In this document: positions 88 through 38,234 of the stretch, one piece after another
How positions within the stretch are numbered: the stretch's first letter is position 1
How the letters are laid out: the number at the start of each line of letters is the position of its first letter
Virus record (IMG/VR): IMGVR_UViG_2609459790_000001
Span: 1-38,270 of that record
DNA from: a virus
Taxonomy: Duplodnaviria; Heunggongvirae; Uroviricota; Caudoviricetes
Length of the DNA: 38,270 nucleotides
Reading direction: 5' to 3' (one strand)
Notes under the pieces: model-generated
Database searches by the model: none
Told to the model about the DNA's origin: nothing
The model's input: the letters and a program-made list of their open reading frames with translations, nothing else
Program-made: the position numbers and the translations under genes

Positions 88-1158
88 TTATTTGATTTCA
101 ATTTTGTCCCACTCCCTGCCTCTGTCATCACGATACTGTGATGCCATGGTGTCCGACTTATGCCCGAGAAGATGTTGAGCAAATTTATCGCTTATCTGCT
201 TCTCATAGAGTCTTGCAGACAAACTGCGCAACTCGTGAAAGGTTGGCGGATCCCCTTCGAAGGAGAGACCTGATGCTTTTCGTGCGCGCATAAAATACCT
301 TGATACTGTGCCGGATGAAAGCGGTTCACGACGAGTAGATGCAATTATGGTTTCTCCGCCAAGAATCTTTTTGCATTTATCAAGTGTTTCCTTCATTGAT
401 ATCCCGAGAGCATCAACATGCAATGTTGTTGGGATGGCAATTTTTACGCCTGTTTTGCTTTGCTCGACATAAAGATATCCATCTACGATATCAGACCACT
501 TCATTTCGCATAAATCACCAACTCGCTGCCCGGTAACAACAGCCAGTTCCATTGCAAGTCTAAGCCAACATGGTGATGATTCTGCTGCTTGATAAATTTT
601 CAGGTATTCGTCAGCCGTAAGTCTTGATCTCCTTACCTCTGATTTTGCAGCGCGAGTGGCTGCGACCGGGTTTGTTGTTATATGGCCTTCAGCTATAGCC
701 TCTCGGAATGCATCGCTCAGTGTTGATCTGATTAACTTGGCTGATGCCGCCTTGCCCTCGTCTATGTATCCATTGAGCATTGCCGCAATTTCTTTTGTGG
801 TGATGTCTTCAAGTGGAGCATCAGGCAGACCCCTCCTTATTGCTTTAATTTTGCTCATGTAATTTATGAGTGTCTTCTGCTTGATTCCTCTGCTGGCCAG
901 GATTTTTTCGTAGCGATCAAGCCATGAATGTAACGTAACGGAATTATCACTGTTGATTCTCGCTGTCAGAGGCTTGTGTTTGTGTCCTGAAAATAACTCA
1001 ATGTTGGCCTGTATAGCTTCAGTGATTGCGATTCGCCTGTCTCGGCCTAATCCAAACTCTTTACCCGTCCTTGGGTCCCTGTAGCAGTAATATCCATTGT
1101 TTCTTATATAAAGGTTAGGGGGTAAATCCCGGCGCTCATGACTTCGCCTTCTTCCCAT
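88..1158 (-). CDS. int: Tyrosine integrase, lambda Int type
   Basis: 356 aa translation matches lambda Int essentially over full length (MGRRRSHERRDLPPNLYIRNNGYYCYRDPRTGKEFGLG ... catalytic region with HELRSLSARLYEKQ and GHKSDTMASQY). Confidence 0.97.
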   Translation of the reverse strand: MGRRRSHERRDLPPNLYIRNNGYYCYRDPRTGKEFGLGRDRRIAITEAIQANIELFSGHKHKPLTARINSDNSVTLHSWLDRYEKILASRGIKQKTLINYMSKIKAIRRGLPDAPLEDITTKEIAAMLNGYIDEGKAASAKLIRSTLSDAFREAIAEGHITTNPVAATRAAKSEVRRSRLTADEYLKIYQAAESSPCWLRLAMELAVVTGQRVGDLCEMKWSDIVDGYLYVEQSKTGVKIAIPTTLHVDALGISMKETLDKCKKILGGETIIASTRREPLSSGTVSRYFMRARKASGLSFEGDPPTFHELRSLSARLYEKQISDKFAQHLLGHKSDTMASQYRDDRGREWDKIEIK

Positions 1159-33094: not shown

Positions 33095-33307
33095 TTATTT
33101 CCCTAGCACATGAAACAATGTTTGCTTTAATTCCACCCATACAATTATGACCACTATAGACAGACAAAAGAAACTGAATGCATTGGCATCACGATCGAAA
33201 CCTTCTCCGGCACTAAATCCGTAAAAGGTCATAAAAAATATAAAAATTGCGCACTTTGCAACGTTTACAAATTTTTTCTTCACACCAACCTCCTTAGTTT
33301 TGAGCAT
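33095..33307 (-). CDS. Hypothetical small membrane protein (weak call)
   Basis: 70 aa ORF with two hydrophobic segments; no clear ribosome-binding site. Confidence 0.3.
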   Translation of the reverse strand: MLKTKEVGVKKKFVNVAKCAIFIFFMTFYGFSAGEGFDRDANAFSFFCLSIVVIIVWVELKQTLFHVLGK

Positions 33308-33336
33308 GACGAAATTAACCAGCCATCAGGCTGGTA

Positions 33337-33519
33337 TTAGTCACATTCTATTTCTTTTGTCGAGGTCCATACATAAGGGTCTGAGCAAACAACCTCACCA
33401 TTTATCATGACGTCATAGCCCATTAGATATGAGTTACCACCAACAATCTGAGCGGCTATGACGCTAATGCTGGCGGCGCAGGCTGCACCAAAAACGAAAC
33501 CAATTAATATATTTTTCAT
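33337..33519 (-). CDS. Hypothetical small exported/membrane protein
   Basis: 60 aa ORF with N-terminal hydrophobic signal-like segment [23 protein letters not shown] and two Cys. Confidence 0.45.
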
Positions 33520-33541
33520 TTTAATTCCAAATAGTTATAGG

Positions 33542-33736
33542 ATGAAAGTTATGACCATAGAAGAACGTCTGAACAACATTGAGTTAAACCAAACCCTGCT
33601 TGACCAGCGCCTTTCAGATCTTGAGCTTAAAGATCTTGATGCGCAAATATCAGAAGCAGAAGCCAAGCTCTCCAGCTTAAACCACCGTAAGAAGCAAATC
33701 CGCAATAGAATTACTCAGGGACGCGGAAGTTGTTGA
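33542..33736 (+). CDS. Hypothetical small coiled-coil protein
   Basis: 64 aa from the ATG at 33542 (MKVMTIEERLNNIELNQTLLDQRLSDLELKDLDAQISEAEAKL...). Confidence 0.45.
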   Translation: MKVMTIEERLNNIELNQTLLDQRLSDLELKDLDAQISEAEAKLSSLNHRKKQIRNRITQGRGSC

Positions 33737-33745
33737 AATCATAGT

Positions 33746-34063
33746 CTATTTTTTCTCAGAGCTCATATTGTAATAGGTGGTATAAATAGAGATTGATTTC
33801 TGACATGCTTCAAGAAATTGCTGCGGAGTCATCCCAAGCCTTGCTTGCTCTGTAGTAAGGAATCTCTGTAAGAATTCATTCCCACCCGGCATGTTTGTAG
33901 ATTCTTGGAATATTGCCATTTGTTTGATTGCACCACACATACCAGCCATTTTCGAAGCTATCATGAGGCCTTGTATTTCATCAAAACTGCTATCGTCTGA
34001 TTTTGTTTCTGCGTTAGCTATGCTCGAGAGACACAGGAGCAATAGGATAGCGATACGTTTCAT
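33746..34063 (-). CDS. Hypothetical secreted protein co-transcribed downstream of mnt
   Basis: 105 aa with classical signal peptide MKRIAILLLLCLSSIANA; start overlaps the mnt stop (ATGA). Confidence 0.65.
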   Translation of the reverse strand: MKRIAILLLLCLSSIANAETKSDDSSFDEIQGLMIASKMAGMCGAIKQMAIFQESTNMPGGNEFLQRFLTTEQARLGMTPQQFLEACQKSISIYTTYYNMSSEKK

Positions 34064-34628: not shown

Positions 34629-35558
34629 ATGAAAAGTATAGCAACAGCAGTATCTACTATCAACGTGCCATTCCACGGCGAAGAGCTTTATGTCGTCAAT
34701 CACAACGGTGAGCCGTACACCCCAATGAAACCTATCGTTGAAGGTATGGGTATGGATTGGGCTTCACAGTTTACGAAAATAAAGCAACGGTTTAAAACCT
34801 CCATTGTGAAAATCACAATGCAGCTTCCTGGTGATGAACAGTGCCGTGAGATTATTTGTTTGGCACTTCGCAAACTTGCTGGCTGGCTGCAAACCATCAG
34901 CCCTAACAAAGTCCGCCCTGAAATCCGCGACAAGGTAATCCAGTATCAGGAAGAGTGTGACGATGTGCTCTACGAGTACTGGACTAAAGGCCATGTAGTT
35001 AACCCACGCAAAGCTAAAAAGGCGTTGCTGGGTAAAATCACCACTGAACAGCAGGAAGCCATTAAACAACTCGTCATGAGTCGCGGTCAGTCTCTGCCAA
35101 AAGAAAAACAGGCGAAGGCGATGATCACCATGTGGTCGTCACTGAAATCCCATTTTGGATGTTCGTACAAAGAAATCAGTGAGGAGCAGTTTACCGAAGC
35201 ACTGTCACTTGCAGCTCGAGTTCCACTTGAAGGTGAGTTCATTGGCAAACAAGAGAAGAAGACCAACGATCTTTCTGCAAAAGAAGCAAACAGTCTTGTA
35301 TGGTTATGGGATTATGCCAACCGCTCACAGGCATTATTCCGCGAACTGTATCCGGCGCTAAAACAAATTCAATCGAACTATTCCGGCAGATGCTACGACT
35401 ACGGTCATGAGTTCTCGTATGTTGTCGGAATGGCGAGAGACGTTTTAATCAATCACACACGAGATGTTGATATTAATGAGCCAGACGGACCAACGAATCT
35501 TTCCGCATGGATGAGACTTAAGAATAAAGAATTACCTCCTTCAGTACATAACTACTGA
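34629..35558 (+). CDS. ant: Antirepressor Ant
   Basis: 309 aa ORF in the position of P22 ant (300 aa) immediately downstream of arc; called from gene order and size, not from recalled sequence identity. Confidence 0.88.
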
Positions 35559-35574
35559 CAGATAACCAACGCAA

Positions 35575-35600
35575 CGACCCAGCTTCGGCTGGGTTTTTTT
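35575..35600 (+). terminator. Intrinsic terminator after ant
   Basis: CCCAGC-TTCG-GCTGGG followed by TTTTTTT. Confidence 0.75.
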
Positions 35601-35658: not shown

Positions 35659-37725
35659 ATGACAGACATTACAGCCAATGTGATTGTATCGATGCCTTCG
35701 CAACTCTTCACTATGGCGCGTTCTTTTAAAGCCGTAGCCAATGGCAAAATTTATATCGGTAAAATTGACACTGACCCGGTAAATCCTGAAAACCAGATTC
35801 AGGTTTATGTAGAGAGTGAAGATGGTTCTCACGTTCCTGTTTCGCAACCAATCATCATTAACGCTGCTGGTTACCCTGTATATAACGGACAGATTGCCAA
35901 ATTCGTTACCGTGCAAGGCCATTCTCTGGCTGTTTATGATGCGTATGGTGCTCAGCAGTTCTATTTTCCTAATGTGCTTAAGTATGACCCTGACCAGCTA
36001 AGACAGAAGTTAGATGGTGTTGGTGGGGTTAATTTAGTAAATGGGGCATTACATGGTGCCATGGATTCAGATCCAAATGTTGGTTTTAAAATCACCACAT
36101 CCTCAGGTGAGATTTACGAATATGCTCCGGGAATTACAGGTCTTGCCGATGGGTTTTCGGTATCAGCATCACAGTTATATTTAACAAGGAATGGCCTATC
36201 TTATAAATACTCTTCACCTCATAACACACTGGTTTGGCCATCTCAGTATATCGATACGAGTGCTGATGCGAAATATTCAATTGAATCTATTATGGCGCAC
36301 GGATTGAATGTGGACCTTAACGGAACTACAGTAAAAGCCAGCACCATTAATATTACGAAAGATTTGATTAATGGTGAAATTGTTGCTATCGGAGATGAAG
36401 GATCATTTATAACAGTAAACTCATGCATGCTTAACAATATTAAAGTTAACTGCAATATGATGGCAATTAGAAGGCCTGTTCATATCAAAACAGGGGCTGT
36501 TAATCCAGTAGTTAAGAATGTTGATGTTTTTGATAGTAATGGTTCTCAACTAACTTATGGTATTTTCATAGATGCAAATTCTGTATTGAATTTTGTCGTT
36601 GATAACATATCAATACATAATATTACCACCATTGGAAATGGTATTCAGATTGATGTAATTGGGCCATGTCGAGGGGTTATTGTAGGAACGGCACTTGATC
36701 CAGTACCATCAAATGATGATGAGGTATCAAGTGGAGTTATAAGTAACGTAAGGGTTTACAAGCTAAACCCTTGGGAAGATGCTGATGGTGTTGTTATTCA
36801 GATTTACAACTCATCATCAAATATGCTCAGCGGGAAGAAAATAAAGGTTGATGGCGTTTATACTTACAATGCACTTAAGCGAGCAGTTAAAGTTCAGGCC
36901 AATGATGTTACAGTAACAAATGTATTTGCGGTTTGTGATGACGCCTCAGCAACTAACCCTATGTATAGTTGTGTTAGTGTTTATGGTAGTTCCTGTGTTG
37001 TTCGTGGTGTTAGTGGGCGAGGAAGGATTGGCAATGGTGTTGATTCATCTGATGGGTTCAATACTATCAGTGATGTTTATCTTAAGACGACAGCAACCTA
37101 TGAGCTAAGCGCAGGTCTACAGATAACTTCCGGGCAGGTAAACGCGAATAACATTCACTCTGAAGGATCAAGATACATAGTCGCAATTCGGGCAGTTAAT
37201 AACACAACACCGTATGTAAATATTAATGGCATATATGGGCAAGGTTATGACGGGGCGATTTTGTTAGAAATCAGATACGGATTTAATATTGGTAATGTTT
37301 ACTTAAGTGATATTTCAGTATCAAGTTCAAATCCCACAAGGTCTTCATTCTTCTTTGATATATTATCAGGTGGAATGATATCTCTTATCAGCGTGTCAGA
37401 CGTCAAGAGAATCAGTCAGGCATATAACGGACCAGATATAAACATTTCTGGTGGGGTTAAAAAAGCTATTGTTAAAAATTCAGTTTTTGAGAGTGGTTCG
37501 TCAAGCATTGGTGTATCAATGGCAACTGGTACTTTAGTTGCATCAAATATATCAGCACAAAGTAAATCTTATGCTGTCAGCGCTACACAAACCACAAATT
37601 CACTTATAAATAACATTGATGGAATCGTTAGGGTTGATAGCACAACCAACAGTAATGTCGGCCTTTACAGAGGGATTACCCCTGTTGGGACTAACACAGG
37701 ACTGAAAACTGTTTTCTATATATAA
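35659..37725 (+). CDS. 9: Tailspike protein: HK620/P22-type N-terminal head-binding domain fused to a divergent beta-helix receptor-binding domain
   Basis: N-terminal ~115 aa ([52 protein letters not shown]...NVLKYDPDQ) matches remembered HK620/P22 tailspike; the remainder is AT-rich and differs from both. Confidence 0.92.
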
Positions 37726-37921
37726 TTATATATAACCTTTTGATGTTTTATATGATGTTATCTTGGCAGGGACGCCAGCAATAGTGCAATTTCCATCTTT
37801 AAAATCTTTGTTAACGACTGCATTCGCGCCTATTGCACAATTGTCACCTATAACTATCTTCCCGTAAATTTTTGCTCCAGGACCAATGTAGCAATTATCA
37901 CCAATTACAGGGGATTCAAGT
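37726..37921 (-). pseudogene. 3' fragment of a hexapeptide-repeat acetyltransferase gene, truncated at a junction with IS3
   Basis: Minus-strand frame reads ...[64 protein letters not shown]-stop (left-handed beta-helix acetyltransferase C-terminus); the reading frame ends at the IS3 junction with no start. Confidence 0.6.
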
Positions 37922-38234
37922 CCTGCTCCAACAGATTTTCTGACACAGGCAGGCCGTGTGCGCGGTAGCTGACCGGGCTGAACTTCCGGGAGGCCTTTGC
38001 CCTCAGTCCCTGACGGCGCAGGCTTGCCGCCACGGTTTTTACGTTAAAGGGGTAACCCTGAGCACGCAGTTCATCCGTCAGGCGTGGGGCACCGTAACGC
38101 TGTTTTGACCGGGTAAAAGCCGCGAGGACAACGCTGTCGCAGTGTTGGCGGAACTGCTGACGCGTGCTTATCCTTGTCCGCCGCTGACACCACGTATACC
38201 AGCCGCTGCGGGCCACCCGGAGCACGCGGCACAT
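37922..38234 (-). pseudogene. insF: IS3 transposase orfB (InsF) N-terminal fragment
   Basis: First ~104 codons of IS3 orfB in frame, then divergence and a stop at the junction (track ORF 37905..38234 reads through the junction for 5 unrelated codons). Confidence 0.85.

Follow-up and report, generated by a model that had tools for sequence, protein, structure and literature searches.

The tailspike encoded near one end of a P22-like prophage joins a conserved head-binding domain to a separate receptor module, a predicted β-helix that most likely targets the E. coli O76 O-antigen. The module belongs to a low-GC cassette shared with a convergent acetyltransferase gene, which probably encodes a receptor-masking enzyme and is truncated in this prophage. 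We assign this reading, a P22-like spike with an O76-cleaving β-helix and a receptor-masking acetyltransferase cassette, a probability of about 0.7. The window, the whole stretch of DNA analyzed here (38,270 bp), comprises the entire draft contig JNRG01000034.1 (assembly GCA_000704565.1).

The prophage in the window is P22-like (Lederbergvirus-type). Its structural genes are about 95% identical at the DNA level to those of coliphages APC_JM3.2 and IME10, and the gene order runs coat, gp4, gp10, tail proteins, gp7, gp20, gp16, arc/mnt, ant, spike. The tailspike gene (35659..37725, plus strand; 688 codons plus stop) appears in the ORF list and as a gene call at the same position in JNRG01000034.1. 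It lies at the end of the P22-type late operon and 3' of immI (arc/mnt/ant), a position that fits a gp9-type tailspike. Directly 5' of it is the antirepressor gene ant (34629..35558, plus strand), recognized by PF10547 and PF10548 (P22_AR_N and P22_AR_C), within an immI region of the kind seen in P22-like phages. A consensus scan of the gap between ant and the spike gene found a terminator-like GC-rich hairpin with a T-run (35576..35595, plus strand), in the place of the tANT terminator annotated upstream of gene 9 in HK620. The P22 spike is expressed through late-operon antitermination, and by analogy expression of the spike in the window may depend on it as well.

Two further features of the backbone were observed. 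Between gp16 and mnt lies an AT-rich block (33095-34063, minus strand, GC ~0.40) with three short ORFs (70, 60 and 105 aa) on that strand, the last with a signal-peptide-like N-terminus ('MKRIAILLLLCLSSIANA'); in P22 and HK620 the corresponding place is taken by superinfection-exclusion or moron genes of the sieA/hkcB type. The integrase is lambda-type (88..1158, minus strand) and sits at the prophage end opposite the spike. A search of the window for tRNA genes found none.

The first-pass annotation had assigned the first ~115 residues of the spike to the HK620/P22 head-binding domain and described the following ~570 residues as unlike either spike, and both parts of that description hold. 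PF09008 (Head_binding) gives a full-length match to aa 1-113 (E 4e-65), HK620 gp9 is 87% identical over aa 1-128 with nothing significant further on, and similarity to PDB chains (Sf6 gp14, P22 gp9 and related spikes) is confined to aa 1-117. In an alignment with CUS-3, HK620, HZ41 and Sf6, similarity breaks off behind '...KYDPDQLRQ', at about aa 117. Together these define a head-binding (tail-attachment) domain of the P22/HK620/Sf6 type spanning aa 1-117 (35659..36009, plus strand). At the DNA level the breakpoint is sharp and falls at codon ~122; Megablast against 50,697 phage records matched only nt 1-356 of the gene. PF09008 was the only domain found by Pfam in the window spike, with neither PF18668 nor the XD domains of Ackermannviridae TSP anchors. 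Past aa 117-128 there is no homology to the receptor modules of P22, HK620, Sf6 or CUS-3, and the ~570-residue remainder has no match in Pfam, NCBIfam, PHROGs, a phmmer search of the PDB or a PDB profile search. The spike thus consists of an anchor and a separate receptor module, the latter spanning aa 122-688 from a conserved motif onward (36022..37722, plus strand).

The AT-rich codon usage reported earlier for the C-terminal part is evident in its base composition. The C-terminal 1,713 nt of the spike gene have a GC content of 0.378 and a GC3 of 0.275, compared with 0.430 and 0.402 for the head-binding part, a GC3 of 0.38-0.59 for the other structural genes and a GC of 0.466 for the whole contig. 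This is the lowest-GC 1.7-kb stretch of the contig (z = -3.0 against non-overlapping stretches). The module family includes a Proteus vulgaris member (P0015), and two prophages that carry relatives (L016 and L017) have very AT-rich backbones (GC 0.32-0.35), which suggests that low-GC Enterobacterales are the natural home of the family. If so, this would account for the AT-rich codon usage in E. coli.

The module family is small, since exhaustive HMMER searching of 1.84 billion cluster representatives yielded only 25 relatives (E <= 1e-3). The >=90% protein cluster of the spike counts 117 member sequences. An AlphaFold2 model of aa 110-688, computed as a monomer from a 28-sequence alignment (A3), is confident (pLDDT 91.3, pTM 0.88) and almost entirely β. 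The model establishes the predicted fold class as a right-handed parallel β-helix of the depolymerase-spike type, so that the C-terminal β-helix required of gp9-type spikes is present in the model of the window spike. The structural neighbors are the Klebsiella K1 capsule lyase (9k4a, 7w1c; score 28), the AlgE4 mannuronan epimerase (27), the coliphage K5A lyase (2x3h; 26.7), PL6 lyases (about 25) and the HK620 and CBA120 TSP2 spikes (23.4). Sequence identity to the best solved structures is 9-14%. Foldseek searches of the PDB and of the viral BFVD returned generic β-helix matches alone, with TM-scores of at most 0.52, which rules out a close structural relative of known specificity in either collection. 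The best phage record for the module, gp168 of the Agtrevirus Gloob, shares 50% amino acid identity over aa 112-686. The structure prediction and search proposed at first pass thus gave a confident β-helix and no close characterized relative, and the absence of a similar characterized spike agrees with the different specificity proposed there.

Nine polar residues are invariant in 28/28 members of the family, some of which are merely 17-30% identical overall. They comprise an acidic cluster, E373-D374-A-D376 in 'PWEDADG' (36775..36786, plus strand), a candidate catalytic or metal-binding site; K407, R408, K411 and Q413 in 'LKRAVKVQ' (36877..36897, plus strand) on the next rung, as assigned from DSSP strands of the model; and S440 and Y442 (36976..36984, plus strand) on the rung that follows. 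Going by the model's DSSP register alone, the nine residues occupy equivalent positions on three successive rungs. Because they stack on consecutive rungs, we infer that they form an active site and not a surface for binding, which would make the module an enzyme. A binding-only adhesin without enzymatic activity would explain why the libraries searched (Pfam, NCBIfam, PHROGs) gave no signature of a catalytic family, but the invariance of nine polar or charged residues (E-D-x-D, K/R/K) on consecutive rungs, in members down to 17% identity, speaks against it. To our knowledge the β-helix spikes of P22-like phages have also proved to be enzymes wherever tested, and we regard the adhesin as very improbable.

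The module occurs in three of 5,426 complete E. coli genomes (K99B, KD602 and JNE132847), and the acetyltransferase gene occurs in the same three and nowhere else among them. Only five genomes of the 5,426 have O76 wzy, and these include the three module carriers (hypergeometric P 3.8e-10). FORC_042 and MB98 are O76 strains that lack the cassette. The comparison of O-antigen types suggested at first pass therefore gave a uniform answer: K99B, KD602 and JNE132847 all have O76 wzy. In JNE132847 the O-locus is annotated with O76 wzx/wzy, and the strain was serologically typed as STEC O76:H7 in a case of HUS (PMC10790564). Module and O76 thus co-occur in the three complete genomes, and the O76 O-antigen is the most likely target of the module. 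Single-spike Lederbergvirus prophages have been found to predict the O-serogroup of their host, O76 being outside the coverage of that work (Pas et al., 2023; PMC10408124). In the literature searched we found no paper in which O76 and a tailspike appear together.

An alternative target would be a capsule (K antigen) or some other surface polysaccharide whose co-occurrence with O76 is fortuitous. The top structural neighbors are indeed capsule depolymerases (the Klebsiella K1 and K5 lyases), and related modules are present in Enterobacter and AT-rich hosts, among which spikes specific for capsules are common. Nevertheless, all three carriers have O76 wzy despite their different prophage backbones, and the spikes of P22-like prophages are characteristically O-antigen specific (PMC10408124), so we consider a capsule target unlikely.

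The O76 target also bears on the chemistry of the spike. According to the account in PMC10304059, which cites Perepelov 2013, the O76 O-antigen is a linear tetrasaccharide with two GalNAc residues, a GalNAc3Ac that is ~70% O-acetylated, and a GlcA. Taking this polysaccharide as the probable substrate, the module could act as a hydrolase or as a Ca-dependent β-eliminating lyase at GlcA. We lean slightly toward the lyase, which is plausible because O76 contains a uronic acid, the top structural neighbors are of the lyase type, and an invariant acidic cluster is followed by Lys/Arg on the next rung.

The association with O76 could instead reflect hitch-hiking by descent within related O76 lineages, the real specificity of the module lying elsewhere. 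The carriers number just three, and in K99B, JNE132847 and KD602 alike intS and a tRNA-Arg gene lie directly beyond the cassette, with the integrase adjoining the spike block (L001 9717-11806, L006 11717-13806, L007 11717-13806), an arrangement that could stem from one ancestral insertion. Set against this, the receptor module has stayed nearly constant while its surroundings differ. Among the three O76 carriers and the window (L001, L006 and L007 against window 35659-37725), the head-binding domain shows 20-31 differences in 351 nt and the module 3-30 in 1,716 nt. K99B and KD602 differ at 26 of 351 nt in the head-binding domain but at only 3 of 1,716 nt in the module, and their upstream prophage backbones are largely non-homologous; overall, head-binding alleles differ by about 6-7% and modules by 0.2-0.6%. 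The backbone that bears the window copy has an unrelated integrase, and the carriers are varied: one is a human STEC from Japan, and the other two are Korean isolates, one of them from a dog. Because alleles, backbones, integrase and hosts differ while the module remains nearly identical, the module would have been repeatedly retained or re-acquired on different phages, and we judge hitch-hiking more improbable still than a capsule target. The far greater divergence of the anchor domain than of the receptor module among the O76 carriers suggests that the module has spread recently from one P22-like anchor to another.

Some observations on these loci stand apart from that comparison. The window integrase shares only 23% identity over 114 aa with the IntS that adjoins the cassette in the complete genomes and is thus a different protein, and the attachment-site layout of the window backbone differs from that of the intS/tRNA-Arg backbone. 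The K99B prophage copy (L001 1-5400) is decayed: its gp16 is cut by IS100 (istA/istB), and the sequence next to the truncated gp16 holds remnants of a BREX ATP-binding protein, of a DEAD/DEAH helicase and of a frameshifted IS3.

At least three anchor types carry homologues of the module. Those on PF09008 are 98% identical to the window module; those on the T7 tail-fiber N-terminus (PF03906) or similar, among them an Enterobacter hormaechei protein, are 87-88% identical; and those on the Ackermannviridae anchor PF18668 (P0005-7, P0011 and P0014) are 42-63% identical. With the head-binding domain shared with HK620/CUS-3/Sf6-type spikes and the sharp breakpoint, this distribution bears out the domain exchange proposed in the first-pass annotation. 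The proposal needs one amendment: the exchanged unit is the module plus the convergent acetyltransferase gene, not the module alone.

In each of the three complete E. coli genomes the spike gene is followed by a convergent acetyltransferase gene (WP_000625801.1), the two stop codons abutting. The same arrangement is found in an Enterobacter prophage (E. hormaechei GCA_019840865.1) whose spike has a T7-type anchor. DNA homology between the Enterobacter and E. coli loci consists of one 2,259-nt block (87.8% identity) that runs from spike codon ~122 to the start codon of the acetyltransferase gene, with a GC of 0.37 inside phage DNA of GC 0.51-0.57. These limits define a low-GC cassette of 2.26 kb, composed of the receptor module and the convergent gene for a 183-aa hexapeptide acetyltransferase. 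Module and acetyltransferase have diverged together, with identities of 88% and 94.5% between E. coli and Enterobacter and of 64% and 75% between E. coli and L016.

The acetyltransferase of E. coli and Enterobacter is a soluble hexapeptide LbH protein (PF00132); its NCBIfam matches are EpsC/CysE/WcaB-like, all below cut-off, and it falls in phrog_2154, annotated 'unknown function'. It does not belong to the Acyl_transf_3 (Oac/OafA) family, and only the relatives in the temperate contexts L013 and L017 use Acyl_transf_3+SGNH enzymes, non-homologous to it and encoded in the same convergent position. L016 and L017 are near-identical prophages (99.5% identical downstream of the cassette). Their differences lie in the end of the spike gene and the acetyltransferase type (L016 8085-9147, L017 2221-4612): L016 has the 183-aa hexapeptide type, and L017 the Acyl_transf_3+SGNH type, apparently split into ORFs of 438 and 55 aa.

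An acetyltransferase gene from one or other of these two unrelated families adjoins the spike gene in 5/5 temperate contexts and in 0/3 lytic contexts, being absent from Gloob, L018 and the N4/SU10-like L019. This pattern is as expected if spikes of this family are blocked once the receptor is O-acetylated, with lysogens thereby protected from superinfection, and the enzyme is probably a receptor-masking or seroconversion enzyme. The O76 cluster of JNE132847 encodes its own acyltransferase, a 189-aa LbH protein that is WbbJ/LacA-like and unrelated to the prophage enzyme (L015 10905-11474), so that O76 lysogens carry two distinct cytoplasmic sugar acetyltransferases. The similarity between the two is limited to hexapeptide repeats, which rules out the prophage gene as a copy of the O76-cluster gene.

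The cassette in the window is incomplete. Immediately beyond the spike gene, about the last 68 of the 183 acetyltransferase codons remain (37726..37933, minus strand), identified by hexapeptide repeats, the ending '...KTSKGYI*', a PF00132 (Hexapep) gene call and collinearity with K99B. The remainder of the contig (37934..38270, minus strand, GC 0.597) is an internal fragment of an IS3-family transposase, from the N-terminal part of orfB (109-aa ORF; PF13276, HTH_21), which we take to be IS3 InsF; the contig ends within it. Collinearity with the intact K99B acetyltransferase gene stops at about 37930-37936, and Logan's independent assembly from these reads breaks off about 20 nt beyond the acetyltransferase/IS3 junction, consistent with a true repeat boundary. 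The junction lies inside orfB and not at the end of the IS, a position that fits a deletion associated with the IS better than a simple insertion. With the acetyltransferase gene truncated at IS3, the predicted masking function is lost in the lysogen represented by the window.

These observations can be assembled into a working model. Residues 1-117 of the spike would attach to the tail hub, and the β-helix of aa 122-688, a predicted O76 O-antigen depolymerase, would bind and most likely cleave the O76 O-antigen at a site formed by E373/D374/D376, K407/R408/K411/Q413 and S440/Y442, bringing the virion to the outer membrane and thereby setting host range. The module would have been acquired as the 2.26-kb low-GC cassette with its convergent cytoplasmic hexapeptide O-acetyltransferase, which in a lysogen would probably O-acetylate the same O-antigen and render the spike ineffective (receptor masking or seroconversion). 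In the window the IS3-associated truncation has destroyed this second component.

A bolder version, which we offer tentatively and hold to be somewhat doubtful, treats module and acetyltransferase as a self-contained 'key plus lock-changer' cassette that moves as a block between unrelated temperate phages and genera (the P22-like E. coli prophage, Enterobacter with its T7-type anchor, and AT-rich Proteus-like prophages), its acetyltransferase slot filled independently by two unrelated families. The spike would then be an O-antigen lyase acting at GlcA and the first O76-specific receptor-binding protein. Lyase chemistry at GlcA is known mainly from spikes that target capsules.

Which hosts an O-antigen-dependent phage can infect is set by its tailspike receptor module, and such modules also serve as serogroup-specific reagents and phage-engineering parts. 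The minor serogroup STEC O76:H7 has been a cause of HUS, and in the published case it proved difficult to isolate (PMC10790564); an O76-specific spike, if validated, could be used in capture, typing and targeted lysis. The locus is also a clean natural example of host-range exchange, in which a module with a sharp anchor/module breakpoint travels with a probable masking gene, and in sister prophages the partner gene is replaced by an analogous, unrelated enzyme.

The protein is of a very well-known kind, with a new and uncharacterized receptor-module subtype. HK620 gp9, Sf6 gp14, P22 gp9 and the CUS-3 endosialidase carry the same N-terminal head-binding domain. The spikes of P22-like phages share with that of the window the gene position at the end of the late operon after arc/mnt/ant, the plan of an anchor, a short linker and a β-helix receptor module, and the breakpoint, for they too diverge from one another after 'YDPDQ'. 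The window module nevertheless has no sequence homology to the P22 endorhamnosidase, the HK620 endo-N-acetylglucosaminidase, the Sf6 endorhamnosidase or the CUS-3 endosialidase. Relative to the β-helix lyases and epimerases (K1 lyase, 7w1c and 9k4a; K5A lyase, 2x3h; AlgE4; PL6 alginate lyases), the low identity given above is accompanied by Foldseek TM-scores of at most 0.37 and no sequence-profile match.

The closest phage counterpart, the 1,010-aa gp168 of Gloob (a Shigella boydii phage of the Ackermannviridae), is homologous to the window module over its C-terminal ~570 aa and keeps all the invariant residues, but has a long Ackermannviridae N-terminal region in place of the head-binding domain. 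Gloob is a lytic myophage of 159 kb that carries several spikes, and no acetyltransferase gene adjoins gp168; this protein is uncharacterized, and with 50% identity to the window module it may differ in specificity. Our literature search found nothing relevant on Gloob or on assembly GCA_000704565, and a paper on Ackermannviridae TSP subtypes (PMC8432352) names neither Gloob nor O76.

A receptor modifier directly downstream of the spike near the prophage end, as in the window cassette, is familiar from Sf6 (oac), P22 (gtrABC) and HK620, whose 'O-antigen modification protein' is encoded on the opposite strand just past gene 9, like the convergent gene of the window. Sf6 Oac is a membrane enzyme of the Acyl_transf_3 family; the cassette modifier differs in being a soluble 183-aa hexapeptide (LbH, CysE/WcaB-like) enzyme. 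What is new here is the predicted O76 target, the candidate active site and a defined 2.26-kb exchange unit with a probable seroconversion gene: unlike the seroconversion genes of Sf6, P22 and HK620, the modifier of the window cassette forms one recombination block with the receptor module, bounded sharply at both ends.
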